A DNA stretch of 64,000 bases from positions 16,249-80,248 of the forward strand of contig JAFLBN010000011.1 of NCBI GenBank assembly GCA_017303395.1, in the 5' to 3' direction. Under the pieces are notes generated by a model, which was not told the origin of the DNA, did no database searches, and worked only from the letters and a program-made list of their open reading frames with translations. The DNA is from Chitinophagales bacterium (lineage in GTDB: Bacteria > Bacteroidota > Bacteroidia > Chitinophagales > Chitinophagaceae). Shown here one piece after another: positions 1,467 to 63,605 of this stretch. Numbering within the stretch: position 1 is the stretch's first letter; each line of letters starts with the position of its first letter. The translations under genes and the position numbers were made by a program.

Positions 1467-1552
1467 CGTGTTGAATAATATGCTAATTTAGTTTTTTGTG
1501 CCTATGTTCGCACCACAAAACAGTTGAAACCGCATATTTATATACTGTAATT

Positions 1553-2224: not shown

Positions 2225-2233
2225 TAACTGCTG

Positions 2234-4257: not shown

Positions 4258-4311
4258 TGTTATTCTTTTGTTTTATTGTGTTTAGACATTTACCCAAAGG
4301 GTAATTTTTGA

Positions 4312-5493: not shown

Positions 5494-5593
5494 GTTATCT
5501 TCTTGATTTTAAATTGTTACGAATTTTTTCTCGTTACAATCGTTACCAAGCAAGATGGTTTGCTATCGATGAGAACCCTTTGTGTACGGACAC

Positions 5594-5628
5594 AAAAAAA
5601 GCTCCACCGATAAATCAGAGGAGCTTTT
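5594..5628 (-). terminator. intrinsic terminator forming the expression platform of the SAM riboswitch
   Basis: The minus strand reads AAAAGCTCCTCTGATTTATCGGTGGAGCTTTTTTTGTG: a GC stem plus a T-run, between the riboswitch aptamer and the CDS start at 5493. Confidence 0.75.
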
Positions 5629-5678
5629 GAATATTTGCACAACCTTTCGGCCGATACCTTTCAAGCTTTTGCTTCTGA

Positions 5679-5790
5679 CTTATCTGCCCCACATTGCTGC
5701 AGGATGGAATTAGCACCAGTTCTCAACACAGTGTGTTGAGGAGGTTGCTAAGGTATCATCGGGCCATAACCCTCCACCTTTCTTGATAAG
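5679..5790 (-). promoter_or_regulatory. SAM-I (S-box) riboswitch aptamer
   Basis: The minus strand reads CTTATCAAGAAAGGTGGAGGGTTATGGCCCGATGATACCTTAGCAACC...GGTGCTAATTCCATCCTGCAGCA...GCAGATAAG. This matches the conserved S-box core (CUUAUCAAGAG.GG.GGAGGGA.UGGCCC.AUGA..CC.GCAACC...GUGCUAAUUCC...AGAUAAG). Confidence 0.9.
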
Positions 5791-5949
5791 CGATGTTGTA
5801 AAGAACTGGTGCAAAGATATGAGCGCATTTTTCACAATTCCAAAATTTTTTTTTGAACCCCCATTTTTTAAGCAGGTTTTAATAACCCCCATACTATGGC
5901 GAATTGCTTATTTTACAGTAATTTGCAGCCCCATCCGAGCCAATAATTC

Positions 5950-6708
5950 ATGGATTTACCCGAAGGCAAAAAAATTTATTTCGCATCCGATTTTCATCTC
6001 GGTATACCCGATAGAGAAACGAGTCTTGCTCGTGAAAGACGGTTGTGCCATTGGCTGGACGAGATAAAAAAAGATGCTGCGCACCTATTTCTGGTAGGTG
6101 ATATTTTCGATGCATGGTTTGAGTATAAGAAGGTAGTACCTAAAGGCTATACACGCTTTTTGGGAAAACTTGCAGAGCTTAGCGACAGCGGGCTTCCTAT
6201 CGAAGCATTTACAGGTAATCATGATTTATGGATGCGTGGCTATTTTCAGGAAGAGCTGAATATTCCTGTGCATCACGAACCGATTGAAAGAACCTTCAAC
6301 GGCAAGCGTTTTGTAATAGCGCACGGCGACGGCCTTGGCCCCGGAGACCATGGTTATAAAATACTGAAAAGCGTGCTGCGCAACAGGTTTTCACAATGGC
6401 TCTACAGGCGTATACATCCCGATACCGGTGTGGGTATGGCAGAGTGGTTCAGCAGGTTAGGACCTAAGCACAGTGTAGAAGACGACCCTTTTCTGGGGCC
6501 TGAAAAAGAATGGCTGGTGCAGTATGCATTAGAAAGGCTGAAGCATGAACCGATAGATTATTTCATCTTCGGGCACAGGCATCTGGCTCTGGAATACCCG
6601 CTGCCCAATAACAGCCTGTATGTAAATCTGGGCGACTGGATACACTACAACAGCTATGGGGTATTTGACGGCAATGATTTAAAACTGGAATACTATAAAG
6701 GCAAGTAA
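5950..6708 (+). CDS. lpxH: UDP-2,3-diacylglucosamine diphosphatase
   Basis: 252 aa. Calcineurin-like metallophosphoesterase motifs in LpxH order: SDFHLG, GDIFD, GNHD, HGD. Confidence 0.8.
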   Translation: MDLPEGKKIYFASDFHLGIPDRETSLARERRLCHWLDEIKKDAAHLFLVGDIFDAWFEYKKVVPKGYTRFLGKLAELSDSGLPIEAFTGNHDLWMRGYFQEELNIPVHHEPIERTFNGKRFVIAHGDGLGPGDHGYKILKSVLRNRFSQWLYRRIHPDTGVGMAEWFSRLGPKHSVEDDPFLGPEKEWLVQYALERLKHEPIDYFIFGHRHLALEYPLPNNSLYVNLGDWIHYNSYGVFDGNDLKLEYYKGK

Positions 6709-27172: not shown

Positions 27173-29800
27173 CTAGGCTGTTACTTCCACACCGTCTTCT
27201 ATGTCTTTGTAGCGTTTCACCTGGTCGAGTGCATCAGGTACTACATCGCTTATCACAACAATAAAAGAATCTTTCTGTGCAGTGGCTATGGCGTGGTCTA
27301 TTGCTTCGCTCTCTTTGCGGAAGAGTGTTATCTTTTTCAGCGGGTCTATGTTTTTAATACCGCGCGTCATCAGTTCTATCATTTCTTCCTCAGTACGGCC
27401 ACGCAGGTTTTTATCCTGCCTGATGATGATTTCGTCAAATATCTTAGCCGATTCTTCGCCCAGCGATATAATGTCTTCATCTCTTCTATCGCCCACACCT
27501 GCTACTATACCTACTTTCAGCGGTGCATCTACAGACTGTACGTATTTACCTATTGCCTGTATACCATGCGTGTTGTGCGCATAGTCCAGCATCACTGTAA
27601 AGTTTTTGAAGTTGAACATATTCATACGTCCCGGTGTCATTGCCGGCGATGGTACGAATGTTTGCAACGCTAGGCGTATGTCTTCTGTTTTGAAATCGCG
27701 CACATAGGCAGCCAGTGTAGCACCCAGCACGTTCGATATATTGAACTCGGCCTTGCCCGAAAAAGTGATAGGTATGTTCGTCACTTTCTCTACGCGTATC
27801 TTCCAGCCACCTTTCAGTATGGTAACATAGCCATGCTCGTATACAGCTGCCAGTCCACCTTTTGAGCAATGCTCCTTTATGCGTGGATTATCTTCGTGCA
27901 GCGAGAAGAGTGCTACTTTACAATCCAGTCCTTCGCGCATAGCATATACCAGATCATCATCTGCATTCAGTATCGCATAGCCTTCGGGGAATACCGTTTG
28001 TGGTACTACACCTTTTACCCTTGCCAGTTTTTCAATTGTGTCTATGCCTTGCAATCCTAAGTGGTCAGCCGCTACATTGGTTACTACAGCCACATCGCAA
28101 TTGTGGAAGCCGAGGCCCGCACGCAGCAATCCGCCACGCGCACATTCCAGTACTGCAAAATCTACGGTAGGGTCTTTCAATACAAACTCCGCAGATACAG
28201 GGCCAGTACAGTCACCCTTTACCATTAGTTGATTTTGTATATACACACCATCGGTGGTAGTGTAGCCTACTTTGTGGCCCATCTGTTTTACAATGTGTGC
28301 TATCAGGCGTGTAGTAGTTGTTTTACCATTGGTACCCGATATGGCAATGATAGGAATCCTTGCACTTGTACCCGGTGGATACAGCATATCTATCACAGGT
28401 TCTGCAACGTTGCGTGGCAGGCCCTCTGTAGGGTCCAGATGCATACGGAAACCCGGCGCTGCATTTACTTCCAATATCGCACCACCGTTTTCTGTTATAG
28501 GTACACTCAGGTCTGGCGCCATGATGTCTATACCGCAAATATCAAGGCCTATGATGCGCGCTATACGCTCTGCCATAAATATATTGGTAGGATGCACAAA
28601 GTCTGTAACATCCGTTGCCGTACCACCCGTACTCAGGTTGGCTGTAGGCTTCAGCCATAGTTCTTCTTTATCTGCCAGTACAGTATCAAGCGTGTATTCT
28701 TTCTTGTTCAGCATGTCCATTGTAAAGTCATCTATTTTGATAGATGTCAATACTTTTTCGTGTCCATAACCACGGCGCGGATCCTGATTTACAATATCTA
28801 TCAGCTCTTGTATGGTGTGTTTGCCATCGCCAATTACTGCAGCAGGTGTACGCAATGCTGCTGCTACAAATTTGTAATTGATAACCAGTAGCCTGAAATC
28901 ACGACCTGTAATAAACTTCTCGCAAATAACGGCGCGTCCGTATTTCTTGGCTGCTGCCAATGCCACAACAGCATCATCCCACGTGCGGATGTTGGTAGTG
29001 GCTCCCTTGCCATGATTACCATTTACAGGCTTCAACACTATCGGGTAGCCTATCTTATCGATAGCTGCCTGCATATCATCTTCATCGTAAATGATGCGCC
29101 CGCGCGGAACAGGTATCTCTGCTGCTTCCAGCAGGTTTTTTGTTTCTTCTTTATCACAAGCTATTTCTACTGCTATGCTGCTGGTAGTGCTTGCAACTGT
29201 AGCCTGTACACGCTTCTGGTTTTTACCATAACCCAGCTGCACCAGCGAGTGCCTGTTCAGCCTGATGTAGGGTATCTTCCTTTTGATGGCTTCATCAACA
29301 ATAGAGCCTGTACTTGGCCCCAGGCGCTCGTCTTCACGTATTTCGCGCAGGTCTTGTATATCTTTTTCAAGGTCGTAAGGCTCACCTGCTATCAATGCCT
29401 CGGCAATACGCACAGCCGCTTTGGCTGTATATATACCTGCTTTCGCTTCGTAGTAAGAAAAGACTACATGATAAACACCACGCTTATCGCTTTCGCGCGT
29501 GCGGCCAAAGCCCGTATCCATACCGGCAAGTGTTTGCAGTTCTAATGCAATGTGTTCTATTACATGGCCCATCCACGTGCCATCTTTTACACGGCTAAAG
29601 AAACCACCAGGCGCACCTTCAGAGCAGCGATGCTCATACAGGCTGGGCATTAATGCCTGCAATCTTTCCAGAAACCCGTCTATTAGATTCGTAGGACGAT
29701 CTTCCAGCTCCTCCAGATCCAGCAGCATTACAATCAACTTATGTCGCTTCACAGACCAGTAGTTAGGGCCGTTCATCACTTTAATATCTAATATCTTCAT
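27173..29800 (-). CDS. cphA: cyanophycin synthetase
   Basis: 875 aa. An N-terminal domain, an ATP-grasp domain (YPIVLKPVNGNHGKG) and a Mur-ligase-like domain with P-loop ISGTNGKTTTTRL. This is the canonical CphA architecture and length. Confidence 0.92.
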   Translation of the reverse strand: MKILDIKVMNGPNYWSVKRHKLIVMLLDLEELEDRPTNLIDGFLERLQALMPSLYEHRCSEGAPGGFFSRVKDGTWMGHVIEHIALELQTLAGMDTGFGRTRESDKRGVYHVVFSYYEAKAGIYTAKAAVRIAEALIAGEPYDLEKDIQDLREIREDERLGPSTGSIVDEAIKRKIPYIRLNRHSLVQLGYGKNQKRVQATVASTTSSIAVEIACDKEETKNLLEAAEIPVPRGRIIYDEDDMQAAIDKIGYPIVLKPVNGNHGKGATTNIRTWDDAVVALAAAKKYGRAVICEKFITGRDFRLLVINYKFVAAALRTPAAVIGDGKHTIQELIDIVNQDPRRGYGHEKVLTSIKIDDFTMDMLNKKEYTLDTVLADKEELWLKPTANLSTGGTATDVTDFVHPTNIFMAERIARIIGLDICGIDIMAPDLSVPITENGGAILEVNAAPGFRMHLDPTEGLPRNVAEPVIDMLYPPGTSARIPIIAISGTNGKTTTTRLIAHIVKQMGHKVGYTTTDGVYIQNQLMVKGDCTGPVSAEFVLKDPTVDFAVLECARGGLLRAGLGFHNCDVAVVTNVAADHLGLQGIDTIEKLARVKGVVPQTVFPEGYAILNADDDLVYAMREGLDCKVALFSLHEDNPRIKEHCSKGGLAAVYEHGYVTILKGGWKIRVEKVTNIPITFSGKAEFNISNVLGATLAAYVRDFKTEDIRLALQTFVPSPAMTPGRMNMFNFKNFTVMLDYAHNTHGIQAIGKYVQSVDAPLKVGIVAGVGDRRDEDIISLGEESAKIFDEIIIRQDKNLRGRTEEEMIELMTRGIKNIDPLKKITLFRKESEAIDHAIATAQKDSFIVVISDVVPDALDQVKRYKDIEDGVEVTA

Positions 29801-39522: not shown

Positions 39523-39661
39523 AGGTATGTTTTTAGGTCATCAATACATTTACCATGCCAAACAAAATATTTCCCTTTTTTGCATTACTTTTGCACCTCG
39601 GGCGTTGAGCCCGATTTTTGTATCGGCCTATTGCTCTCACTTTACATATATTTTCAATAAG

Positions 39662-41380: not shown

Positions 41381-41640
41381 GTGAGATTGCTTTGTGCCTC
41401 CTCACTCCAAAGTATCAGGATGTACCACATTGACGTGAGAGAATAGAATTGTTCAGCTTGGCAGCACAGTAGTAATGAAGTAGCATCAAGGTAGCAACCG
41501 ACTTAAAGGGAGTTTTTTAAGTCGGCGGCTTTTCTTTGTTACTTTCTTTTTCCGCAAAAAGAAAGTAAATACTCGCAAAGGGAGATACACAATTGGCAGA
41601 TAGAATGCTTCATCATTTTTCTGCATGCATTATGTGATAG
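41381..41640 (-). repeat. diverged, inverted copy of the ~215-bp intergenic repeat family (copy C)
   Basis: The reverse complement contains GCGAGTATTTACTTTCTTTTTGCGGAAAAAGAAAGTAACAAAGAAAAG followed by the hairpin CCGACTTAAAAAACTCCCTTTAAGTCGG, collinear with 57051-57262 and 63391-63605. Confidence 0.6.
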
Positions 41641-43748: not shown

Positions 43749-44489
43749 TTAGTGGTTGAAGTAGAAAACTAGGTTTTCGCCGCATATCTCCATATGGTAA
43801 TCATATCCTTCTAATGCTTTGAAGACAGATTTGGTACAACCTGCTTTCATACGGTCGTGCAACTCTACTAGTAGTACTTTCACTCTTGGCAGCCATTTAG
43901 ATACATCCCCTTCAAACACTTCTTTTTCCGAACCTTCGATATCTATTTTCAGTATATCAATCGTGTCCATACCATGCCTGTTGGCAATCTCATCTATCGA
44001 TATAGCTTTTATGGTATTTTCATTTTCGTAGTTCACCTCTTTGATGGTAAATGCCCATTCGTCAGCACTTACGTTTTCTATCTCAAGGTTCACATTCTTA
44101 TTCCACACACCGTTTTGCTGGCGTTGTATGGTAGGATAGTTTTCTGTGTTCTTTGTAAGCATCGCAAAATTGGCCGAAGATGGTTCAATAGATACAATCT
44201 TCGCATCCGGAAAACGATTTGAAAACCATACTGCAAACATACCTATGTTAGCCCCGCAGTCTATAATAGTTTTCGGCTGAAAATGCAGGTCGAAACTATA
44301 TTCCTTCCAGTAAAAAATCTGGTTGAATACTTTTACATCAGTACTGTCTTTGCGAAAAAACAAAGGTGCTTTGTATCCCTGCAACTGAATACTGAAGATA
44401 CCATCTGCATGGGTCTTCTTCATCAGGTAGCGCGTATCAAGTGGTATAGGCCTTATATAAGGCTTCAGGTATTCTCTAAAAGGTTTCAT
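43749..44489 (-). CDS. FkbM family methyltransferase
   Basis: 246 aa. SAM-binding block IIDCGANIGMF and the overall FkbM-like layout. Confidence 0.65.
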   Translation of the reverse strand: MKPFREYLKPYIRPIPLDTRYLMKKTHADGIFSIQLQGYKAPLFFRKDSTDVKVFNQIFYWKEYSFDLHFQPKTIIDCGANIGMFAVWFSNRFPDAKIVSIEPSSANFAMLTKNTENYPTIQRQQNGVWNKNVNLEIENVSADEWAFTIKEVNYENENTIKAISIDEIANRHGMDTIDILKIDIEGSEKEVFEGDVSKWLPRVKVLLVELHDRMKAGCTKSVFKALEGYDYHMEICGENLVFYFNH

Positions 44490-47035: not shown

Positions 47036-47068
47036 TAAAAACGTCGGCTATGTGCCGACGTTTTGAAG
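47036..47068. terminator. bidirectional-looking intrinsic terminator downstream of the TonB-dependent receptor
   Basis: AAAAACGTCGGCTATGTGCCGACGTTTTGAAG. Confidence 0.8.
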
Positions 47069-47070
47069 TA

Positions 47071-48930
47071 TTAATAAGTAGTGTTGAATTGTACACCCAC
47101 TGTGTACCATCTCCCTGGCAGTTGTATAACACTTGCCTCGCGGTATTTGGTATCCAGTATATTGTTTACATCTGCATAGATGTTAAACTGTTTGATGCGG
47201 TATGCCACACGTGCATCTACTAGTGTATAGTCGTTTGCATTGATGCGGTACAGGTAGCGAACGTTTGCATTTATCTGTAGCTTATTCCACAACATACTGC
47301 GCACAGATGCTATTGCCTGATGGCGCAGCGCTTCTACAGCGTATTTAGAAATAGCATTGTTAGGTGTTTCAATTACAGGGCTTAAGTAGGTATAGTTGCC
47401 CTGCAGGTTGATGACATACTTATCGCTCAATGCAAGATGCTTGCTCAGTTTGTATGTCACCTGTCCGCTGATGCCGTTTGTATTTACAGACTGGAAGTTT
47501 TGTGGCTGCCACGGAGCCAGTGTATTGGTACGAACCCAATCTATAAAGTCTGTATTGTTTTTGTAGAAGTAAGCGGCTCTTGCAAACAACAGATTGCCGT
47601 TGTATTGCAAACCGCCTTCTGCATAATGTGCTAATTCAGGTTGCAGGTTGGGGTTGCCTGTATTAGTTGGGCCATTATAATAAAGGTCTGTATAAGTAGG
47701 TAGGCGTTGCCCCATACTTGCATTGGCAAATACTTTCCATTTTGGTAGGAAGCGATAGCCTGCGTCAAGACCCGGGAATGCTTGCCAGCCATAGTCGCTG
47801 TTGTAGTTGGCATATACACCCAGCCCTGTATTCAGCTTATCGTTGAAGTAGTGTTTGTACTCTGCGTAGATGCCTGTGTTATTACGATTGCGCTTGCCGA
47901 GGTTGGTACTGTTGATGTCTTCGTTACGGTATTCAACACCTATACCAACAGTGCCTTTGCGCATAGTATAGCTGCTCTGTACCTCGCCCGTTACCACATT
48001 TGTTTCGTGTATGTTGTGGTACAAAGATGGATTCTGACGAACGAAAATATAGTCGTCATTGTTGTAACGATAGCTAACACGCGGGCGTATCATCAGTTTG
48101 CCGGTTGGCTTCAGCGTGTAGGCAATACTTCCCATTGCTGTCTGTACAGTTTCTGTAGAATTGGCATCAACCGGTGCGGCATAATATCCGTTTGCACCAA
48201 AGTCGTTGTGGATGTACGCACCCATCGCATCGATGCTGTTCTTACCGTTCAGCACTATCCTGTTCTGGTAAAATAGGCGCGTTGCTTTGTATGCAGTATT
48301 GTATCTGTAACCATTGCCTTCATCGTGCGCTACAGAAAGGATATGACTTTGTTGCTTTCCGGCGAAAGAAGCAGATGCCTGTGCGCCCCAACCGTAGTAG
48401 GTATCGCCGCTGGCAGTGTCTGTTTGTAGATTGCTGCCTGCATATACCTGTGCGCTTATTTCGTTTTGCTGTGGTATGCGGGTAACGATGTTGATGGCAC
48501 CCGCCAGTGCGTTAACACCATAAACCATGGCAGCAGGCCCGCGCAATACTTCAATCTGTTCTATAGCCGAGATAGGAATGGGCAGGTTCATCATGTGGTG
48601 GCCTGTTTGCGGGTCGCTCATCTTCACACCGTTTACCAGTACCAGTACCTGATCGAATGTACTTCCGTCGATGCTGATGTCTGCCTGCGTGCCGTTAGGA
48701 CCGCGCTGGCGAAAGTCTGCACCTGCAACATAGGCAAGTAGTTCTGCGGTAGATTTTACAGGCAGTGTCGCAATTTGTTTGCGGTCCATTACCTGCATGT
48801 TTCTGTTTTGCTTACCGAAGCTTGCCTGTATTCTGTTTTCGTGAATGATGACGGTGTCGAGTGCTTGCTGTGCAAAGGAAGAAAGGCTGCTGCCCACCAG
48901 TCCTAAGCCGATAATCAAGTGTTTTTGCAT
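47071..48930 (-). CDS. TonB-dependent receptor
   Basis: 619 aa. Signal peptide, a plug domain (DTVIIHENR..., IEVLRGPAAMVYGVNALAGAINIVT) and a C-terminal beta-barrel ending in ...GVQFNTTY. Confidence 0.85.
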   Translation of the reverse strand: MQKHLIIGLGLVGSSLSSFAQQALDTVIIHENRIQASFGKQNRNMQVMDRKQIATLPVKSTAELLAYVAGADFRQRGPNGTQADISIDGSTFDQVLVLVNGVKMSDPQTGHHMMNLPIPISAIEQIEVLRGPAAMVYGVNALAGAINIVTRIPQQNEISAQVYAGSNLQTDTASGDTYYGWGAQASASFAGKQQSHILSVAHDEGNGYRYNTAYKATRLFYQNRIVLNGKNSIDAMGAYIHNDFGANGYYAAPVDANSTETVQTAMGSIAYTLKPTGKLMIRPRVSYRYNNDDYIFVRQNPSLYHNIHETNVVTGEVQSSYTMRKGTVGIGVEYRNEDINSTNLGKRNRNNTGIYAEYKHYFNDKLNTGLGVYANYNSDYGWQAFPGLDAGYRFLPKWKVFANASMGQRLPTYTDLYYNGPTNTGNPNLQPELAHYAEGGLQYNGNLLFARAAYFYKNNTDFIDWVRTNTLAPWQPQNFQSVNTNGISGQVTYKLSKHLALSDKYVINLQGNYTYLSPVIETPNNAISKYAVEALRHQAIASVRSMLWNKLQINANVRYLYRINANDYTLVDARVAYRIKQFNIYADVNNILDTKYREASVIQLPGRWYTVGVQFNTTY

Positions 48931-48997
48931 ATGGTTTGTTTTAGCGCCGCAAAGGTATAGGCGTTAAAACCGTTGATTATCAAACTTTAAAGCATAT

Positions 48998-49444
48998 TTA
49001 TAAACGCAACATCTCAATGTGTGGTATTCCGTCTTCTATATATTCTGCACTATTTATATTAAAACCAAAACGCTCGTAAAAAGCCTTCAAATATAATTGT
49101 GCACCTATACGTATTGGGCCCGTGCCGTAAGATTCTATTGCCTTTTCTACAGATAGCTCCATCAGTTCCATCCCCATGCCCTTTGCACGATAGTCGGGGT
49201 CTGTAACAACACGCCCTATAGACATCTCTTTGTAAGACACACCCGCAGGTACCAGACGGCTGTATGCAACCAGTGCACTATCTGCAAAGCCCATCAGGTG
49301 CAGGCATTTGGTGTCTTTATCATCCATATCCAGAAACACACAGTTTTGTTCTACCACAAACACCTTGCTGCGTAGTTTCAGCACTTCATATAGTTCGTAA
49401 TTGCTTAGTTCACCGAAAGCCTTCAGTCGCCAGTTCAGTTGCAT
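48998..49444 (-). CDS. GNAT family N-acetyltransferase (ElaA-like)
   Basis: 148 aa from MQLNWRLKAF. ELYEVLKLRSKVFVVEQNC plus the acetyl-CoA loop RAKGMGMELM. Confidence 0.75.
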   Translation of the reverse strand: MQLNWRLKAFGELSNYELYEVLKLRSKVFVVEQNCVFLDMDDKDTKCLHLMGFADSALVAYSRLVPAGVSYKEMSIGRVVTDPDYRAKGMGMELMELSVEKAIESYGTGPIRIGAQLYLKAFYERFGFNINSAEYIEDGIPHIEMLRL

Positions 49445-49454
49445 AATATATTCG

Positions 49455-50714
49455 TTAAGGGGTTGTTTCTCTGTTGCGCGATAACATGATAGCACCGCAA
49501 AGCATAGCACTTACAGATAGTGTAAGGATATGATAGTATTTATACAACAGCGGAGAGAACATGTAGAATATCATGATGAATACAAACAGCATCAGCAATG
49601 TATAGAAGCTGTAATCTACACGAGTTTTATTGCGTTGGTAATACACAATGCCGATAATATTCAGCAGTATCATCAGCGATCCTTGTATTACACGCATGAT
49701 GTATATCTGCTCAGGGGTGTTGCCGGGTAATAAGTTTTTGAAATAAGAGGCGAAGTAGATACCCGGTACAAATGTGTAGGATATTGGTGGTTCGCCATAT
49801 CCGTCCCATTCTTCTACAGCACAGTTGTTATGATACAGAATACCTTCTTTCAGTATTGTAGGGTCCTTCATGTAGAATGGTATGATGTATAATACTACAA
49901 CAGCAAGTAATACAGCACCCCACATCATTATATTGGTTTTGCGTGGAATGTTTTGCCAGTATACAATTGCAAACAAAGGCAGCCAGAAAACAAATGTATA
50001 TCTTGATAACAGGCACAGAATAAGCCCGATTGTAATCATGTAGATATTCTTCTGCAACAGGCCAATGGCCAGTATCATATAATAGGCAGCTATCAATGTT
50101 TCCATAGAAACCCCGACATCCATACGTGCATAGCTGATGTAGAAGATGAGTATAAATAATGGCAGTGATATCGCAAGCAATTTCACGATAACATTCACCT
50201 TGTTGCGCCATACATAGATACCCCATATACCGTTTGCAACTATCATAGCCAGTGCGCCTACCCACCTGTTGTCGAAATGGAAGATATGCGATAGTGCCAG
50301 TGGCAGCCAGTTGAGCGGCATATATACCGGGTATGGATGCCAGCTGTAGTCTTCAATAGGGTAGTACGGGAATTTGCCCGCAGCATACCGCTCATAGAGT
50401 GCATTCAGCTGTGTCATTACATCAGACAGTTTGCCAGGGTCGTTATACTCGGCAAACAATTTATCCAGCGAAGGGATAGTGCAAGCCAAAGCAGCCAGAC
50501 CCAATATACCACCTGTCAATACATTACTGACAGAGGGCTTTACCGGCATTGGTGCTTCACCTTTCTTTAATACCGACAGGTAATAAAGCGGTACTAGCAG
50601 AAACAGTATGAATAATACAGCAGGATTGCCATCAAGCCCCAGCCATTCGCGGCCATATACTACTACGTAGCATTGAAGCAGCAAAAGGATGACAGGTATG
50701 ACTACTTTCTTCAT
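49455..50714 (-). CDS. hypothetical polytopic membrane protein (possibly a GT-C-like glycosyltransferase)
   Basis: 419 aa with roughly a dozen hydrophobic segments and one larger loop. No diagnostic motif recognised, so the GT-C guess rests on topology only. Confidence 0.4.
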   Translation of the reverse strand: MKKVVIPVILLLLQCYVVVYGREWLGLDGNPAVLFILFLLVPLYYLSVLKKGEAPMPVKPSVSNVLTGGILGLAALACTIPSLDKLFAEYNDPGKLSDVMTQLNALYERYAAGKFPYYPIEDYSWHPYPVYMPLNWLPLALSHIFHFDNRWVGALAMIVANGIWGIYVWRNKVNVIVKLLAISLPLFILIFYISYARMDVGVSMETLIAAYYMILAIGLLQKNIYMITIGLILCLLSRYTFVFWLPLFAIVYWQNIPRKTNIMMWGAVLLAVVVLYIIPFYMKDPTILKEGILYHNNCAVEEWDGYGEPPISYTFVPGIYFASYFKNLLPGNTPEQIYIMRVIQGSLMILLNIIGIVYYQRNKTRVDYSFYTLLMLFVFIMIFYMFSPLLYKYYHILTLSVSAMLCGAIMLSRNRETTP

Positions 50715-50761
50715 GAATGCATTTTAGCAATAAATAACTATATAACCGAGGTTATAGTATG

Positions 50762-51955
50762 TTATTTACTCAGGTGCATACTCCTTTCTTTATAAAGCTG
50801 GCGGAACCATGGGTCGCGCAGGTCTTTGATAAAGCGGATAGCCTCGCCGGTGCTCTTCATTTCAGGGCCCAGCTCTTTGTTTACATTCGGGAATTTGTTG
50901 AAGCTGAATATCGGCTCTTTCACTGCAAAACCTTCAAGTTTCTTTTCCATCTTGAAGTCTTTCAGTTTCTTTTCGCCCAGCATCACTTTGGTTGCTATAT
51001 TCAGGTATGGGATACCGTATGCTTTTGCAATGAATGGGGTAGTACGGCTGGCACGCGGGTTAGCTTCTATCACATATACTTTACCATCTTTGATGGCAAA
51101 CTGTATGTTGATGAGGCCTTTCACATTCAGTTTCAGTGCTATGCGCTTAGCTATATCAGCCATTTCGTCCACAATCAACTGGCCCAGGTTGAAGCATGGC
51201 AGCAGGGCGTGGCTATCGCCACTATGAATACCTGCAGGCTCTATATGCTCCATAATGCCCATGATGTGTACTTCTTCGCCATCGCAGATAGCGTCTACCT
51301 CTGCTTCCTGACAACGGTCCAGGAAGTGGTCGATGAGTATTTTATTGCCCGGAAGGTGCTTCAGCAGGCTCAGTACGCTTTTTTCCAGTTCGTCATCATT
51401 GATAACGATACGCATCCTTTGTCCACCCAATACATAAGATGGGCGCACCAGTACCGGATAACCTACTTCGTTGGCTACTTCTATAGCCTCGTCTGTAGTA
51501 TATGCCGTACCGTAGCGTGGGTAAGGGATGTTGAGCTCTTTCAGCAAATCGCTGAAGCGGCCGCGGTCTTCGGCAATGTCCATATCATCGAAAGATGTAC
51601 CGATGATGCGAACGCCTTTTTCGTGCAGTCGCTTTGCCAGTTTCAACGCTGTTTGTCCGCCCAATTGCACTATCACACCGTATGGTTGCTCATGCTCAAT
51701 GATTTCCCACAGGTGCTCCCAGTATACGGGTTCGAAATACAGCTTGTCTGCAATATCAAAGTCTGTAGATACTGTTTCAGGGTTGCAGTTTACCATAATG
51801 GCTTCAAAACCACTTTCCTTAACAGCCAGCAGGCCGTGCGTGCAGCAATAATCAAATTCTATACCCTGGCCGATACGATTCGGGCCAGACCCCAATACAA
51901 TGACTTTTTTCTTTTCTCCGGGGATTGATTCGTTGAAAACGATAGAAGAACTCAT
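50762..51955 (-). CDS. carB: carbamoyl-phosphate synthase large subunit, C-terminal half only (carbamoyl-phosphate-forming ATP-grasp domain)
   Basis: MSSSIVFNESIPGEKKKVIVLGSGPNRIGQGIEFDYCCTHG...ANPRASRTTPFIAKAYGIPY...STGEA. An alternative TTG start lies at 51979. The protein ends after the ATP-grasp domain, with no MGS-like allosteric domain. Confidence 0.9.
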   Translation of the reverse strand: MSSSIVFNESIPGEKKKVIVLGSGPNRIGQGIEFDYCCTHGLLAVKESGFEAIMVNCNPETVSTDFDIADKLYFEPVYWEHLWEIIEHEQPYGVIVQLGGQTALKLAKRLHEKGVRIIGTSFDDMDIAEDRGRFSDLLKELNIPYPRYGTAYTTDEAIEVANEVGYPVLVRPSYVLGGQRMRIVINDDELEKSVLSLLKHLPGNKILIDHFLDRCQEAEVDAICDGEEVHIMGIMEHIEPAGIHSGDSHALLPCFNLGQLIVDEMADIAKRIALKLNVKGLINIQFAIKDGKVYVIEANPRASRTTPFIAKAYGIPYLNIATKVMLGEKKLKDFKMEKKLEGFAVKEPIFSFNKFPNVNKELGPEMKSTGEAIRFIKDLRDPWFRQLYKERSMHLSK

Positions 51956-51999
51956 GAGCGGCAAAGTTAGCACATTCAATCAAATCCGTAAAATACAAG

Positions 52000-52938
52000 T
52001 TATATAACAGATTTTATCCATTCAATGCATTCCCCCTCATCTACAATAGACCATGAATGGGGGTGTCGCATACCGTTGGCACGCATCCCCTTGCGGGCAG
52101 ACTGAATAAACTGAGCTTTTTTGTTGCCCAGCATCATCAGCTTTTTTATCAGCTCTGCAGAAAACTCATAGTTGGCATTGTGAACAGATTGCATTCTGTT
52201 TATCAGGCGCCAGTTGACATCTATTTCGTGATAGGTCCTTACGGCTGTTTCCTTAAGGTATATTTCATTATTGCAATACGAGGCATTCATGCAAAAAGGT
52301 GTTACCTCGGCATACTTTGCAACATTGTCTTTAGGGATGCCTCTGTCTTTTTGCATCATCTGCAGGGCGCTATTTGCTTCAGCCACTGCCATGTCAGAAT
52401 AGTTTTCTTTAACTATCTGCTCCAGCAGTTCCCAAGTGCCGAAGACATCTATCGGAGAGTCGACCGTAAAAACAGCCTTCGGGTGTACAGGGTATTTATC
52501 GGGAAACTGGTTGCAGAGTTCTACATAACGCAAGGCAATAGTACCACCTGCCGAAAAGCCGCCCAATACAAACTTTGAAGGGTCTGCGTGATAACGCTTG
52601 ATAACATCTTGCAGTACAGCATTGAGATTATTAACTACGTTTTGCCTGGCATATACTTCATACCCCGCAGCGAATGACACCGTGAGTATATTATTGTGGT
52701 AGGCAAAACTGTCGAGCTTGGTTTCGGGCAATGTGTTTTCGGGTTGCTGGCTATAGCCTGCTAACAGAACCAGTACTGCATCTATTTTGCCTGCCGGCTC
52801 TGTAACCATGTAATAACCACTGATAGGTTCATTCTTATTAATGTCGATGCGTTTTACCTGTGGTTCGGTTTGTGCAGTGCAGTATATGCCAATGCATAAA
52901 AAGGATGCAACGATGAGGTATGATAATTTCTTCAACAT
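52000..52938 (-). CDS. exported alpha/beta hydrolase (esterase-like)
   Basis: 312 aa. Signal peptide MLKKLSYLIVASFLCIGIYCTAQ and the nucleophile elbow GGFSAGG. Confidence 0.65.
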   Translation of the reverse strand: MLKKLSYLIVASFLCIGIYCTAQTEPQVKRIDINKNEPISGYYMVTEPAGKIDAVLVLLAGYSQQPENTLPETKLDSFAYHNNILTVSFAAGYEVYARQNVVNNLNAVLQDVIKRYHADPSKFVLGGFSAGGTIALRYVELCNQFPDKYPVHPKAVFTVDSPIDVFGTWELLEQIVKENYSDMAVAEANSALQMMQKDRGIPKDNVAKYAEVTPFCMNASYCNNEIYLKETAVRTYHEIDVNWRLINRMQSVHNANYEFSAELIKKLMMLGNKKAQFIQSARKGMRANGMRHPHSWSIVDEGECIEWIKSVI

Positions 52939-52941
52939 AAA

Positions 52942-53304
52942 CTACCAGGGGTTTTTGAGATCGTTTTTTGTAAAGAGATGTTGCCTGTCTTTGAAATTGC
53001 TGTCAGTTGGCTTTTTCAATACCACACCCGTATTGTCGAAGAGCCTCCTGATAGTGGCAATGGGTGTAAGCACTAGCCAGTATATGATGCTTAATAGTAT
53101 TGCGTTGTTGATACGGCCGATGAAACCTGTCAGCAGACCAAACCATTTATGGACAAAAGCAGCAAACCCACTAGATGCCAGCCCCAATATGCCAATGGCA
53201 AAAGCTGTGTATAATATCTCTATACGATGAAACAGGAAATAGAGAAATACTCCCATAAGCACAATGGCGAGTAGCGACTCTTTTATTTTTACTGCTTCCT
53301 TCAT
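52942..53304 (-). CDS. SxtJ-like small membrane protein
   Basis: 120 aa with 3 hydrophobic segments. It sits immediately after a carbamoyltransferase, as in SxtI-SxtJ-type modules. The family call is from recollection. Confidence 0.55.
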   Translation of the reverse strand: MKEAVKIKESLLAIVLMGVFLYFLFHRIEILYTAFAIGILGLASSGFAAFVHKWFGLLTGFIGRINNAILLSIIYWLVLTPIATIRRLFDNTGVVLKKPTDSNFKDRQHLFTKNDLKNPW

Positions 53305-53451
53305 TTAGAACAATGTATATATAAACGGTGCCAACCCTGTATTGGCTGCAATTATCAGTACGGCTATCAGCAGCAGTGCGATGATGATGGGTGTGAGCCA
53401 CCATTTTTTGCGCTCTTTCATAAATAGCCACAAGTCTTTTAAAAATTCCAT
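53305..53451 (-). CDS. DUF5989-like single-TM peptide
   Basis: MEFLKDLWLFMKERKKWWLTPIIIALLLIAVLIIAANTGLAPFIYTLF is a characteristic companion of SxtJ and carbamoyltransferase genes. Confidence 0.55.
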   Translation of the reverse strand: MEFLKDLWLFMKERKKWWLTPIIIALLLIAVLIIAANTGLAPFIYTLF

Positions 53452-53476
53452 TGCTACCAAATTACAGCTTCTGTTA

Positions 53477-55327
53477 CTAATCTTTAGCAAAGCTTTGTTT
53501 ATAAACTACCACGTCCGCCTGCTCTTCTTTATACAATATAAAATTGCCCATCACCAGTACATCCATATCTGTAGTCATAAAACAAGTGAATGCATCATCG
53601 GGTGTACACACAATCGGTTCACCCCGCACATTGAAAGATGTATTGATAAGCACACCATAATCAGCAATACATTTAAAGTCTGTGAGTAGTTGATGCATCA
53701 ACGGATTATCATTTGCTGATACCGTTTGTATGCGTGCGCTGTAGTCTATATGCGTAATGGCCGGCAATACACTGCGCTGTACATATAGCTTATCCATCAG
53801 CGATAGATTGTGATAACCATCAGGCAGTGCTTTGCGATACGTTTCATTTACAAGATGTACAAACAACATGTATGGCGATGGCTGTTTTACATTGAACAAT
53901 CGCACAGCTTCTTCCTGCAACATGATAGGTGCAAACGGACGGAAACCCTCGCGCTGTTTTATCTTGATATTGAGGCGCTTTTGCATGTCGGGATTACGAG
54001 CATCGGCCAGTATGCTGCGGTTGCCTAATGCACGCGGGCCAAACTCCATCCTGCCCTGAAACCATCCTACTACTTTCCCAATTGCTATGTCTTTTGCAAC
54101 GGTCGTTGTGAGCAATGCACTGTCTTCTATATGTGTAGCAACAGCACCATATTTATTGATAGTGCGGATGATGTCTTTATCACTGTACGACGGGCCGAGG
54201 TATGCACCATGCATCGCATCTGTACCCGCATTGCTGCGTGGTTGGTCTTGATGAATATGGTATGCTGCGAGTGCAGCACCTATTGCACCACCTGCATCTC
54301 CTGCTGCGGGTTGTATATATATATTGTCGAAAATGCCTGCAGCCTGCAGCTTGCCATTGGCCACACAGTTGAGTGCTACACCGCCTGCCATGCAGAGTGT
54401 GTTGCTGCCTGTCAGTTGCTTAGCTGTACGTGCCAGCTTCAATACAATATCTTCTGTAACCTGTTGTATTGCCAGTGCAAGATTGCAGTGATGTTGCGCT
54501 ATTGCTTCATCTTCGCCCCTGCGTTTGAAGCCGAATAGTTTCTCCCAACCTGCATCGCTGACCATGCGCATACCTGTTGCATAGGTAAAGTATTGCTGAT
54601 GCAGAAAGATAGAGCCATCATCGTACACCGTGCAGAGCTTATCGAGTATCAATTGTTTGTATGCTGACACTTGTACATCCTGCGGGTTGCCATAGGGTGC
54701 AAGCCCCATCAACTTATATTCGCCCGAGTTGACTTTGAAGCCCAGAAAGTAGGTGAAGGCAGAGTAGAGCAAACCGACCGAATGCGGAAAGTGCAGCTCC
54801 TTCAGTACTTCTATGTTGTTACCACTTCCTTTAGCTATAGACGTAGTACACCATTCGCCGACGCCATCTATTGTTAGTATGGCAGCATCTGTATATGGAG
54901 ACGGATAGAATGCACTGGCAGCATGGCTGAGGTGATGCTCGGGGAAGAGCAGTAGTTGCCTGCCGTTGCAGTTTTCATCTGCTTCTTTCAGCCCCTTGCG
55001 TACATTGTCTTTCAGAAATAGTTTTTCCTTTATCCATACAGGCATAGAACGCATGAAGGATAGCCAGCCCTTTGGCGAATAGGCATAGTAGGTTTCCAGC
55101 AATCGTTCGAACTTGAGGAAGGGCTTATCGTAGAAGGCTACATAATCTACATTGTTGATGCTGATGCCGCCCTCTTGCAGACAATAACGAATGGCGTGAA
55201 TAGGAAAGGCTGCATCGTGTTTGATGCGGGTAAACCTTTCTTCCTGCGCAGCGGCAACTATGCGGCCGTCAATTATTAGTGCCGCCGCCGCATCGTGATA
55301 ATAACAGGAAATGCCAAGTATCGTCAT
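53477..55327 (-). CDS. carbamoyltransferase (NodU/CmcH/SxtI family)
   Basis: About 616 aa from MTILGISCYYHDAAAALI. Family blocks EERFTRIKHDAAFP, GGVALNCVANG and NTSFNVRGEPIVCTPDDA. Confidence 0.9.
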   Translation of the reverse strand: MTILGISCYYHDAAAALIIDGRIVAAAQEERFTRIKHDAAFPIHAIRYCLQEGGISINNVDYVAFYDKPFLKFERLLETYYAYSPKGWLSFMRSMPVWIKEKLFLKDNVRKGLKEADENCNGRQLLLFPEHHLSHAASAFYPSPYTDAAILTIDGVGEWCTTSIAKGSGNNIEVLKELHFPHSVGLLYSAFTYFLGFKVNSGEYKLMGLAPYGNPQDVQVSAYKQLILDKLCTVYDDGSIFLHQQYFTYATGMRMVSDAGWEKLFGFKRRGEDEAIAQHHCNLALAIQQVTEDIVLKLARTAKQLTGSNTLCMAGGVALNCVANGKLQAAGIFDNIYIQPAAGDAGGAIGAALAAYHIHQDQPRSNAGTDAMHGAYLGPSYSDKDIIRTINKYGAVATHIEDSALLTTTVAKDIAIGKVVGWFQGRMEFGPRALGNRSILADARNPDMQKRLNIKIKQREGFRPFAPIMLQEEAVRLFNVKQPSPYMLFVHLVNETYRKALPDGYHNLSLMDKLYVQRSVLPAITHIDYSARIQTVSANDNPLMHQLLTDFKCIADYGVLINTSFNVRGEPIVCTPDDAFTCFMTTDMDVLVMGNFILYKEEQADVVVYKQSFAKD

Positions 55328-55409: not shown

Positions 55410-56345
55410 TTATTTCAGATATATATACTTATGAAAAAGCCACTTATCACAATATGTGGGCACTAAACTTCCATCAACTAATAGGTTATTGTGCCAATCT
55501 CTTATCTTATGTTTCTCACTATCTGAAAATGTTCTTTTTTCATTATAATAATCAATATTATAAACATCAGATTTACCTGTCTTATCTACCAAAAGAAATA
55601 TGTGCATCACTAACATTGCATCCTCGTATTTGTTAGTAACCTTCATCCCTAAAAAATTTGATAATTCCTCCTCATAAGACTTTCCATTTTTTAGTTTTTC
55701 TATATCATCAGTGTGACTATATCCCATTTTTTCTACATCCCAATTATAGAATTCATTCGTGTCGGGTATGTGTATAGTTCTAGGTAGCACTATTTTACCG
55801 TTATATCTGTCTAAGATATTTTTATTACGCTCTTTTTTAAGAATGTTACCTGTATTAAAATTGAAAGCTATTGTAGTATCAGCCCTAGTAATTACAAAAA
55901 CAGTATCATTGTTTACAAACGTCCTAGTGTACCAAGCAGCATAATTTTTTATTGAATTGAAGAAATCAGAATCCCGCACCAATTCACTAACACGATATGT
56001 TTTAGCTACATTGCCTTGTTTATATATAGTTAAGACAGGTGTACTGTCATTCATGTTTGTAACATATGGTTGATATGAAAACAATACTGAACCGGCATCG
56101 TTGATATGGCTATCGTAATGTAAATACTCATTAATAGTATAAAGTTCTGTAGAGTCCGGAGTGAAAATGATTGTTTTGCCTATTGATGCAAAATGCCTTG
56201 AAAATGGAATTGTTTTAAAAAATGCCTTGTTATTTTGTGAATACTGTATGTATCTATACATAACTTCTGGCTGCAACGCAAATGCAGAAGAGAAATGCAT
56301 TGTGATAATTATTAAAAATGCTACGATAGATTTTGGTAAGTGCAT
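55410..56345 (-). CDS. hypothetical exported protein in a low-GC segment
   Basis: 311 aa from MHLPKSIVAFLIIITMHFSSAFA (signal peptide). The protein is Asn/Lys/Tyr-rich and the DNA is visibly more AT-rich than its flanks. No family recognised. Confidence 0.5.
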   Translation of the reverse strand: MHLPKSIVAFLIIITMHFSSAFALQPEVMYRYIQYSQNNKAFFKTIPFSRHFASIGKTIIFTPDSTELYTINEYLHYDSHINDAGSVLFSYQPYVTNMNDSTPVLTIYKQGNVAKTYRVSELVRDSDFFNSIKNYAAWYTRTFVNNDTVFVITRADTTIAFNFNTGNILKKERNKNILDRYNGKIVLPRTIHIPDTNEFYNWDVEKMGYSHTDDIEKLKNGKSYEEELSNFLGMKVTNKYEDAMLVMHIFLLVDKTGKSDVYNIDYYNEKRTFSDSEKHKIRDWHNNLLVDGSLVPTYCDKWLFHKYIYLK

Positions 56346-56415
56346 ATAATTTTGCAGTATTACAAGTGGTGCAATATATAAGATTGATTTTTGTTGTCTT
56401 GTTAAGAAATAATAA

Positions 56416-56994
56416 TTATTCCCGCAATATTTCTTTTTGCCTGCCGATTGGTTTTGATAAAAGTTTGCGCAGGCCTGCATGCGTTATGTGTTGGCTTGGT
56501 GTATTGCTGACAGTGCTTGTTTCCGCTTCCTGTTTTTCGGGTTTGTTGGCAGATGGCTGTACGGTGTGTACTACGGTCATTTGTTTGGGGGTGGGGTAGT
56601 CGCCCGCAAGGCGGCTATCGAGGTCGATGGCTTTTAGCATCTGGTTGATGGATGGCTTTACCATCTGTGTACAGGTTTTGCAGTCCTTGCCTTTGTATTG
56701 CTGTTCTATATACACATTGCCCTCGGCTATGCGTGCCAGTATTTCGCGCTTGCGCTGCACAGTGAGTAGCTCTGCGGTGATGCGTTGTTTCACTTCCTGT
56801 TCGGCCTCGCTGCGCAGGCGTGCTTCTGCCTCTTCTATAGCGGTGGCTATTTCGGGATTTTTGAGCAGGCGGTTGGCAGCGCTTTCCATAGAGCGGTAAT
56901 TATTGCTCTTGCAATTGTATGCCAGTTTGTAGGCATGGGCGGGGTCGCCCCATTTCAGATACTCGGTTACGAACCGGTATTGTTTCAGGTTCAT
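56416..56994 (-). CDS. phage terminase small subunit-like protein (orphan)
   Basis: The N-terminus MNLKQYRFVTEYLKWGDPAHAYKLAYNCKSNNYRSMESAANRLLKNPEIATAIEE follows the Terminase_2 HTH pattern (KQ.RF..EYL.....AY..AGY.......A.RLL.NP.I...I). A coiled-coil middle follows. Confidence 0.6.
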   Translation of the reverse strand: MNLKQYRFVTEYLKWGDPAHAYKLAYNCKSNNYRSMESAANRLLKNPEIATAIEEAEARLRSEAEQEVKQRITAELLTVQRKREILARIAEGNVYIEQQYKGKDCKTCTQMVKPSINQMLKAIDLDSRLAGDYPTPKQMTVVHTVQPSANKPEKQEAETSTVSNTPSQHITHAGLRKLLSKPIGRQKEILRE

Positions 56995-57050: not shown

Positions 57051-57262
57051 GTCATTGCGAGGAACGAAGCAATCTTGTCATAACACAATTTCTCTGCGCG
57101 AGCACTTACTTTCTTTTGCTTGCCCAAAAGAAAGTAACAAAGAAAAGGGCCCCCTAAAACCAATGCTCCGCATGTTTTAGGGCTAGCTCTACGCTGTTAT
57201 TGTGGGGAATACGCATTGAGCGTGGTCAGTGCTGCGCACATGACGGCGCTATTGGGCTGCTG
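57051..57262 (+). repeat. ~215-bp intergenic repeat, copy A
   Basis: Near-identical to 63391-63605. Shared exact runs include TTACTTTCTTTTGCTTG, CCAAAAGAAAGTAACAAAGAAAA, CCCCCTAAAACCAATGCTCCGCATGTTTTAGGG and GGTCAGTGCTGCGCACATGACGG. Confidence 0.85.
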
Positions 57263-63390: not shown

Positions 63391-63605
63391 GTGTTATTAC
63401 GAGGAACGAAGCAATCTAATCATAACGCAATTTCTCTCTTCGCGAGTATTACTTTCTTTTGCTTGTCCAAAAGAAAGTAACAAAGAAAAAGACCCCCTAA
63501 AACCAATGCTCCGCATGTTTTAGGGTTAGCTATACGCTGTTATTTTGGGGAATACACATTAGGCGAGGTCAGTGCTGCGCACATGACGGTGCTATGAAGC
63601 TGTTG
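63391..63605 (+). repeat. ~215-bp intergenic repeat, copy B
   Basis: Collinear and near-identical to 57051-57262 in the same orientation. Confidence 0.85.

Follow-up and report, generated by a model that had tools for sequence, protein, structure and literature searches.

Genes that are interrupted by inserted DNA are familiar from the sigK skin element and the nifD and hupL elements, and O-carbamoyltransferases of the TobZ and GdmN family convert carbamoyl phosphate and ATP to carbamoyl-AMP, from which the acceptor is then O-carbamoylated. The carbamoyl-phosphate synthetase (CPSase) of Aquifex aeolicus is made of separate polypeptides, CPS.A, CPS.B and a glutaminase (GLN), which are reported to assemble into an active glutamine-dependent complex (PMC6022934). 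In saxitoxin clusters, an sxtI-J-K-L block encodes a transferase, two proteins of no assigned function (about 120-135 aa and about 50 aa) and a GDSL lipase (PMC2679770, PMC2885083); sxtK measures 165 bp (PMC2679770), and SxtL has only been proposed as a decarbamoylase (PMC2679770, PMC2885083). Here, we describe a locus that touches all of these systems, in a stretch of 64,000 nucleotides from a Chitinophagales bacterium (GCA_017303395.1, contig JAFLBN010000011.1, positions 16,249 to 80,248; hereafter the window). A run of eight co-directional minus-strand open reading frames (ORFs), spanning 55327-47071, joins a carbamoyltransferase cassette (transferase, DUF5989 and SxtJ-like genes) to carB-C, which encodes the carbamoyl-phosphate-forming half of the CPSase large subunit. 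We find that this run is very probably a mosaic around a split housekeeping carB gene, in which the cassette is nested within the split in relatives and the adjacency of cassette and carB-C in the window was inherited from that order. A search of the literature available to us on carB fission in Bacteroidetes, on DUF5989 and on this nested arrangement returned nothing relevant.

The initial annotation of the run proposed that half a CPSase had been placed in a carbamoylation module as a dedicated supply of carbamoyl phosphate. When we searched the window with carB-C by tblastn, a paralogous stretch of 33% identity at 39.7-40.8 kb revealed carB-N, the other half of the gene, with an ATG start at 39662. 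The two halves have exactly complementary ranges on the CarB model, lie on opposite strands about 9.5 kb apart (Table 1) and cover both ATP-grasp halves and the oligomerisation domain between two polypeptides, with neither overlap nor gap. Both are 82-99% identical to their orthologues. carB-N sits at the ancestral carB position (mreB / LVIVD-like / LVIVD-like / carB) and is 82-86% identical to the N halves of fused orthologues, while the downstream neighbours of carB-C (GNAT, receptor, YHS, 4HBT thioesterase, M16 peptidase, CoA-transferase and MsrB) are ancestral as well. With an intact and highly conserved carB-N at its ancestral position in the same window, the idea of a dedicated half enzyme is not supported.

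To place the two halves in a wider context, we surveyed carB in 80 species-level genome loci, with each assembly present once. About 60 of these loci carry a single fused ORF of about 940-950 aa that comprises the N and C halves without an MGS domain, and the remaining 20 carry a split carB. In the window, carB-C ends about 25 residues past the STGE motif and the MGS-like allosteric domain is absent, as the initial annotation had seen; since about 60 of the 80 loci hold fused orthologues that also lack this domain, its absence is the family norm. All of the splits fall in a short variable linker between ...YSTFE and NES..KKKIIVLGSG, where the stop codon of one half and the start codon of the other are clean in 20 species, and the split genomes occur in at least seven clades of the carB-C tree, with fused sisters. 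Stand-alone carB-C-type proteins of 393-400 aa, at 85-100% identity, are present in many Flavipsychrobacter, Taibaiella and other Chitinophagaceae assemblies. Among split genomes, the ratio of non-synonymous to synonymous substitution rates (dN/dS) was 0.017-0.037 for carB-C and 0.02-0.08 for carB-N; both halves are functional genes under very strong purifying selection. Together, these findings show that the CarB piece in the run is the back half of the cell's ordinary housekeeping carB, split in two.

Split carB-C alleles of different clades tend to read NES[IV]PS..KK after the start and fused alleles NESK.SD.KK, a pattern that could reflect either a shared origin of the split alleles or convergent change at a new N-terminus. 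Sliding-window nucleotide identity gave no clear mosaic signal for a recombinant origin of the carB-C 5' end. In two loci the halves are adjacent, separated by a 1.06-kb insert with two small ORFs of no family match (L022:7763-8807; L numbers denote surveyed loci) or by a spacer of only 59 nt (L026:9941-10001). Such spacers may have been left behind by an insert that has since been lost, or may mark fissions that arose separately.

We found the cassette between carB-N and carB-C, with both halves on the strand of the cassette, in six genomes (L013, L078, L166, L167, L168 and L172; gene orders in Table 1), typically in the order carbamoyltransferase-DUF5989-SxtJ, preceded optionally by a GDSL/SGNH hydrolase gene. 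In the window, UBA1935 (L003/L083), L165 and Lacibacter MH-610 (L012), the cassette lies directly upstream of carB-C and carB-N is elsewhere, and about 16 other split loci have a stand-alone carB-C with no transferase nearby. The initial annotation had held that an adjacency unique to this strain would speak against its reading; the link recurs in at least nine genomes from several genera. Only 0-3 nt separate the carB-N stop codon from the adjoining cassette gene in L078, L166 and L167, such that transcription of the cassette probably starts at the carB promoter in these loci. GDSL genes located before the transferase score 295-315 bits between the Flavipsychrobacter-like and Lacibacter-like groups, compared to at most 92 bits with other GDSL genes, and this orthology favors one shared origin of the nested order for both groups. 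In L078 no GDSL gene precedes the transferase, and the SGNH gene that follows it is unrelated. On the other hand, L164, whose carB-C is 98.7% identical to that of the window, has no cassette: the terminase-like gene found upstream of the window's cassette is followed by a 96-nt gap and then by carB-C and the downstream genes. Since the first 25 nt and the last 14 nt of this gap match the window sequences that flank the cassette, its presence or absence amounts to a clean indel of about 3.4 kb, and loss in L164 is the more parsimonious account because the more distant L165 has the cassette. These gene orders place the cassette within carB, and not a recruited CPSase fragment within the cassette.

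We then looked from the side of the cassette, in 80 metagenome loci, one of which (L083) belongs to the same species as the window, leaving 79 others. A DUF5989 homologue adjoins the transferase in 70 of the 80, an SxtJ-family gene is adjacent in 58 of the 79 loci outside the window's species, and no carB lies nearby in 78 of the 79 from other organisms. Cassettes without a linked carB also occur in Algoriphagus, in one Chitinophagales genome and in one 8.9-Mb genome. Given how rare carB neighbours are in this survey, linkage to carB is peculiar to some Chitinophagaceae rather than a trait of the cassette itself. The neighbourhood survey suggested in the initial annotation thus bears out a non-random carB link within Chitinophagaceae but not a general linkage of SxtJ/DUF5989 modules to CPSase genes. 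The single exception, L111, is an unrelated metagenome contig in which, at 683-2287 (minus strand) and 3597-5995 (plus strand), an SxtJ-DUF5989-transferase cassette lies about 1.3 kb from a divergently oriented carB-like gene with 44% identity to carB-N.

For transcription signals, we relied on the Bacteroidetes -7 motif, since a scan with the sigma-70 consensus was uninformative (32 sites compared to 30 expected). Within the window, the TANNTTTG motif clusters shortly before the starts of genes, and the boxes in or beside the run precede carB-C, the receptor gene, the terminase-like gene and carB-N. A TANNTTTG box is found 14-25 nt before the carB-C ATG in 15 of the 20 split loci and also in L164-L168 and L172, and in every cassette-linked locus but L078 it lies 14-15 nt before the ATG. 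All members of the Flavipsychrobacter-like group have TAACTTTG at -14, and the Lacibacter-like group has TAC[AC]TTTG at -15. A promoter belonging to carB-C itself had been named beforehand as a finding that would count against a single dedicated unit, and, at the level of motifs only, this conserved box would be such a promoter.

Table 1. Positions of features in the window, with gene orders at the loci where the cassette lies between the carB halves (CarBN and CarBC, carB halves; CT, carbamoyltransferase).
Feature	Position	Strand	Evidence or remark
carB-C, carbamoyl-phosphate-forming half of CPSase large subunit, 397 aa	50762-51955	-	CPSase_L_D1 and D2; NF003671 positions 541-923 of 1058, 566 bits
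carB-N, carboxyphosphate and oligomerisation half, 547 aa	39662-41305	+	NF003671 positions 1-541 of 1058, 851 bits
O-carbamoyltransferase, SxtI/NodU/TobZ/GdmN type, 616 aa, first cassette gene	53477-55327	-	Carbam_trans_N 2.9e-92, Carbam_trans_C 1e-69
DUF5989 (SxtK-sized) small membrane protein, 48 aa	53305-53451	-	PF19451, 78 bits against a cut-off of 27
SxtJ-like small polytopic membrane protein, 120 aa	52942-53304	-	PF19588, E = 4e-4, 21.5 bits, below the cut-off of 24.4
Exported alpha/beta hydrolase, 312 aa, GFSAG motif	52000-52938	-	Weak Abhydrolase_3 and BD-FAE matches; N-terminal signal-like sequence
Polytopic membrane protein, 419 aa, probable GT-C-fold glycosyltransferase	49455-50714	-	AlphaFold2 (AF2) pLDDT 90.9; Foldseek
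GNAT acetyltransferase, PRK10314-like, backbone gene	48998-49444	-	Homologue after fused carB in L005 and after carB-C in L164-L166
TonB-dependent receptor, Plug and barrel, BtuB-like (below model cut-off), backbone gene	47071-48930	-	Own -7 box at 48957-48950
TAACTTTG, Bacteroidetes-type -7 promoter-like box	51962-51969	-	6 nt from carB-C ATG
TANNTTTG, -7 box before receptor gene	48950-48957	-	
TACTTTTG, -7 box before carB-N	39586-39593	+	
Intrinsic-terminator-like hairpin closing the run	47036-47068	-	11-bp stem, -17 kcal/mol, z = -7.7, then UUUUUAUUA
Lone terminase-small-subunit-like gene	56416-56994	-	Terminase_2 at 7e-11
356-aa protein	55410-56480	-	No family match; insertion relative to UBA1935
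Short repeat family, about 60-200 nt	41529-41586; 57088-57259; 63393-63604	+; -; -	Hairpin ACTTTCTTTT..AAAAGAAAGT
L078 gene order		one strand	CarBN / CT / SGNH / DUF5989 / SxtJ / CarBC
L013 gene order			CarBN, CarBC and cassette genes on one strand; extra genes interspersed, one of them on the opposite strand
L166 gene order			CarBN / GDSL / (two opposite-strand genes) / CT / DUF5989 / SxtJ / CarBC
L167 gene order			CarBN / GDSL / CT / DUF5989 / SxtJ / CarBC
L168 (Lacibacter cauensis) gene order			CarBN / GDSL / CT / 383 aa / DUF5989 / SxtJ / CarBC / DinB / ComEC / PurH
L172 gene order			As in L168

The layout of the run agrees with the initial annotation, which had described eight tightly packed minus-strand genes, a strong hairpin beyond the last of them and no convincing hairpin inside. 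All eight ORFs are present in the window's ORF list, with gaps of 25, 0, 3, 44, 47, 10 and 67 nt when ATG starts are assumed; the closing hairpin folds stably (Table 1), and, by consensus scan, none of the spaces between the eight genes holds a terminator-like site. The gene identities given there were also right, and family profile scans agree with them. As a test of a single operon these data cut both ways, with no terminator-like sites between the genes, yet TANNTTTG boxes, at motif level, before both carB-C and the receptor gene. A search of Rfam found no riboswitch or other known RNA in the run. Its sole match in the window was a SAM riboswitch at 5.7 kb (RF00162, 76 bits, 5677-5792, minus strand), which lies upstream of genes for a Cys/Met-metabolism pyridoxal phosphate enzyme (4312-5493) and a homoserine dehydrogenase (3004-4257).

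The first gene of the cassette encodes a bona fide relative of GdmN and TobZ. Its best solved relatives are GdmN (1.5e-92), NovN and TobZ, and its motifs HHLSH (HHxxH), DGVGE (DGxGE), AGDAGG (AGDAG), FGPRALGNRS (FGPRALGxRS), REGFRPFAP and NTSFN align with those of GdmN and are invariant across the four cassette transferases that we compared. We take these motifs, from what is known of the family, to form the metal, nucleotide and carbamoyl-phosphate sites. The initial annotation had pointed to a loss of catalytic residues as a reason to doubt the module, and the family motifs are intact. For the 120-aa protein, the match to the SxtJ profile is itself weak, and the putative assignment draws its support from gene position and from orthologues: proteins at the same position in L165-L167 are 60-78% identical to it, and those of L168 and L171 do score as SxtJ. 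The alpha/beta hydrolase was seen only in the window and UBA1935 (L003/L083), and SxtJ directly precedes carB-C in L165-L167; this gene is a lineage-specific addition between SxtJ and carB-C. No remnant of a GDSL gene was found in the window.

The genes that follow carB-C have different histories. The 419-aa membrane protein has no Pfam or NCBIfam match, and the 39 homologues that we found are all named hypothetical. Foldseek searches with its confidently predicted structure returned mostly GT-C proteins as top matches (PIGU, ArnT, STT3 and PIG-M), a weak resemblance at E values of 0.02-0.3 and template-modelling (TM) scores of 0.4-0.5, with the best TM score, 0.50, to PIG-M. S97-D98 are invariant, and D98 would be a candidate for the acidic residue that GT-C proteins carry in the first outer loop. 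On this model a GT-C-like fold is probable, and the check for GT-C families that had been suggested thus yields a likely fold and no sequence family. The protein is fast evolving, at 53-84% identity where neighbouring genes are 87-99% identical, and it is a lineage-specific addition after carB-C. Homologues also adjoin carB-C in L164 (8001-9263) and L167 (10708-12963, minus strand), the latter as two tandem paralogues on the opposite strand, and an unrelated 472-aa protein occupies this slot in L165. No homology was found between the 419-aa protein and a 360-aa protein that follows carB-C in Taibaiella. Membrane proteins thus vary in the slot behind carB-C. The GNAT and TonB-dependent receptor genes, on the other hand, are old neighbours of carB, and a receptor homologue with 62% identity directly follows the fused carB in L006. 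The hydrolase, the membrane protein and the receptor had been grouped into one dedicated module, a grouping that these comparisons do not support, since the hydrolase and the 419-aa protein are lineage-specific and the GNAT and receptor genes flank fused carB in sister genomes. The run is thus a mosaic of the cassette, the housekeeping carB-C, a lineage-specific membrane protein and the backbone GNAT and receptor genes.

The cassette's context elsewhere bears on what the transferase may modify. In Algoriphagus alkaliphilus (L169, 7349-19429), a transferase-GDSL-DUF5989-SxtJ-like cassette lies within a nonulosonic-acid or polysaccharide cluster of sugar-nucleotide, NeuB, CMP-sugar synthetase and epimerase genes, which hints at a surface sugar as the acceptor. 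An envelope glycan or a lipid-linked sugar would be the most likely acceptor, because of this placement, the membrane-protein partners of the transferase and its GT-C-like neighbour.

Upstream of the run, the terminase-like gene directly precedes the cassette or carB-C in four genomes (the window, L003, L164 and L165), and no other phage genes were present near it in the flanks that we examined. In L003/L083 it is followed after about 70 nt by the transferase, and the 356-aa gene is absent. An FkbM-family methyltransferase gene (43749-44489, minus strand) is also missing from the collinear UBA1935 contig, which has about 92% nucleotide identity to the window, and these two genes are strain-level indels on either side of the run. 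The short repeat family has one copy (41529-41586) at the carB-N/msrB junction that is specific to the window and another (57088-57259) between the terminase-like gene and a 144-aa gene; a variant also lies upstream of the terminase-like gene in L164. After msrB, the window has this repeat and carB-N, and UBA1935, L164 and L165 have an HhH-GPD gene. We considered whether an inversion between the inverted repeat copies (41529-41586 and 57088-57147) had separated carB-N, and rejected this because UBA1935 shares the repeat-terminase junction but has HhH-GPD after msrB. With this extra, window-specific rearrangement, the 9.5-kb distance between the carB halves is secondary. The window, UBA1935, L164 and L165 form a group in which carB-N is detached and the terminase-like gene precedes carB-C or the cassette, and the closest relatives of the window with a nested cassette are L166 and L167. 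The window also holds a cyanophycin synthetase gene (875 aa, 27173-29800, minus strand), in a housekeeping stretch with gyrB, mreB, yidC and ychF.

In the model that we favor, carB is split at its variable linker such that carB-N and carB-C jointly provide the whole of the family's MGS-less enzyme, and in related genomes the carbamoylation cassette occupies exactly this split. In the window's sub-lineage, carB-N became detached, the terminase-like gene came to precede the cassette, and the hydrolase was added after SxtJ and the probable GT-C-fold protein after carB-C. The two halves would assemble with CarA into a normal CPSase, as do CPS.A and CPS.B of Aquifex, and serve arginine and pyrimidine synthesis. 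The transferase, presumably cytoplasmic, would act at the membrane with the two small membrane proteins and the esterase as partners, and would use carbamoyl phosphate and ATP to O-carbamoylate its acceptor, probably a lipid-linked precursor or an envelope-glycan sugar. The adjacency to carB-C would be inherited from the nested order, in which the cassette is most likely co-transcribed with carB-N, and carB-C would keep a promoter of its own in most split loci.

Several observations weigh against this model. No carA was found among the ORFs scanned, which cover the 64-kb window only, and a second, more divergent carB (below about 76% identity) may exist elsewhere in the genome. In a neighbour-joining (NJ) tree of the transferases, each carB-linked group is well supported, but their joint monophyly receives 1.5% bootstrap, and the transferase of L170, which is not linked to carB, groups with the Lacibacter-like set at 80% bootstrap. 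A first NJ tree had placed all carB-linked transferases in one clade, and this failed once closer sequences and bootstrapping were added. The case for a single origin therefore rests on shared gene order and not on the tree. The order of events fits a split first or an insertion first alike. The putative promoters are matches to a motif, and with 6-7 nt between box and ATG the mRNA would be nearly leaderless. Finally, the proposed envelope-glycan acceptor draws on a single genomic context, that of Algoriphagus, on the membrane proteins that accompany the transferase and on the GT-C-like protein nearby.

We weighed the mosaic model against other accounts of the same data. carB-C could have been recruited as a stand-alone, carbamate-phosphorylating or ammonia-dependent CPSase for the transferase, with all eight genes acting as one unit that modifies an exported molecule. 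The tight spacing and the one terminator at the run's end would fit such a unit, as would the consumption of carbamoyl phosphate by the transferase, which is family knowledge (PMC2679770), and isolated CPS.A or CPS.B of Aquifex is reported to be able to catalyse both ATP-dependent partial reactions (PMC6022934). However, a complementary and conserved carB-N is present in the same window, the orthologue of carB-C in sister genomes is the C half of their only, fused carB and has the same downstream neighbours, and carB-C is preceded by a promoter-like box of its own. Moreover, L164 retains carB-C without the cassette, about 16 other split loci have carB-C with no transferase near, and 78 of the 79 other cassette loci lack a nearby carB; we consider recruitment highly improbable. 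It is scarcely credible that the carB pieces are decaying remnants and that carbamoyl phosphate comes from a different enzyme. The interruption affects an essential gene, and carA was not seen in the window, but dN/dS is 0.02-0.08 in both halves among split genomes, start and stop codons in the linker are clean in 20 species, the promoter box before carB-C is conserved, and the Aquifex enzyme sets a precedent for an active split CPSase (PMC6022934).

The remaining alternatives concern how the cassette came to carB and why it stayed. Cassettes of different origin may have entered the carB linker, or an already split carB, independently two or three times, with the linker as a permissive or favoured site, possibly through recombination in the conserved carB flanks. 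The three carB-linked transferase lineages, with their 1.5% joint bootstrap and the placement of L170 at 80%, are consistent with this, as are the different hydrolase arrangement of L078 (no GDSL before the transferase, an unrelated SGNH after it), the splits in at least seven separate carB-C clades and the presence of comEC just downstream in several loci. On the other hand, two of the three lineages share an orthologous GDSL gene at one position, ahead of the transferase, the deep NJ nodes are star-like such that non-monophyly is likewise not demonstrated, the junctions show no integrase, repeats or target-site signature, and sliding-window identity within carB-C lacks a clear mosaic signal. 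We hold convergent capture to be a tentative possibility. Selection may instead have kept the cassette at carB for co-expression or for direct hand-over of the labile carbamoyl phosphate, making the linkage functional rather than a neutral relic. In favor of this, a consumer of carbamoyl phosphate lies inside its producer's gene, genera with differences of about 37% in the transferase and 15% in carB-C have all retained the arrangement, rearrangements in at least two lineages (the window's group and L012) left the cassette beside carB-C, carB-N and the cassette join stop codon to start codon in L078, L166 and L167, and the unrelated cassette of L111 also neighbours a carB. Nonetheless, the cassette works without carB linkage in most Bacteroidota and was cleanly lost in L164, and chance breakpoints would be expected to fall in the longer carB-N-to-transferase stretch and not in the SxtJ-carB-C gap of 18-120 nt; a selected linkage is thus unlikely. 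A stronger version, in which the cassette is maintained inside carB as a producer-consumer unit co-transcribed from the carB promoter, carbamoyl phosphate might pass directly from the split CPSase to the transferase at the membrane and insertion is the cause of the frequent carB fissions in Chitinophagaceae, strikes us as more doubtful again.

The mosaic model replaces a dedicated half-CPSase with an essential housekeeping gene that was repeatedly split at a domain linker within one family. Fused and split carB alleles in sister species offer a clean natural case for gene fission, and they bear on how mesophiles build a CPSase out of two separate halves. The cassette may help to assign the SxtJ/SxtK-type proteins, which are widespread and uncharacterised, and if the producer-consumer reading were true, the nested loci, including that of the cultured Lacibacter cauensis, would provide an experimental handle on them. 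Our findings also call for caution with annotation, since the carB halves carry generic or full-length enzyme names in databases ("ATP-grasp domain-containing protein" or "carbamoyl-phosphate synthase large chain").

Compared to the systems described so far, the locus shares a large subunit made as two polypeptides with the Aquifex CPSase. The break in the window falls between the oligomerisation domain and the second ATP-grasp half, and that of Aquifex is said to lie at the same boundary. Unlike in Aquifex, the split is recent and patchy, affecting about one quarter of the sampled Chitinophagaceae species in at least seven clades; the C half in the window lacks the MGS-like allosteric domain, as does the family's fused enzyme, and several genomes hold a carbamoyl-phosphate-consuming cassette between the halves. 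The cassette resembles the sxtI-J-K-L block in combining an O-carbamoyltransferase with two small ORFs and, in relatives, often a GDSL/SGNH hydrolase. It differs from saxitoxin clusters in that no other saxitoxin genes are present, the order is transferase-DUF5989-SxtJ, the acceptor is not saxitoxin, an alpha/beta hydrolase stands in place of the GDSL partner in the window, and the cassette is embedded in carB. With TobZ, GdmN, NovN, NodU and CmcH, the transferase shares a two-domain (Kae1-like and YrdC-like) architecture and conserved motifs, but those enzymes belong to antibiotic or Nod-factor clusters and have known acceptors, whereas the window enzyme belongs to a widespread Bacteroidota cassette with membrane partners. 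Lastly, carB is parted in two by inserted DNA, as are the genes that carry the sigK, nifD and hupL elements, but each half has its own stop or start codon and would be made as a functional polypeptide of its own, no recombinase accompanies the insert, and excision is neither needed nor indicated.

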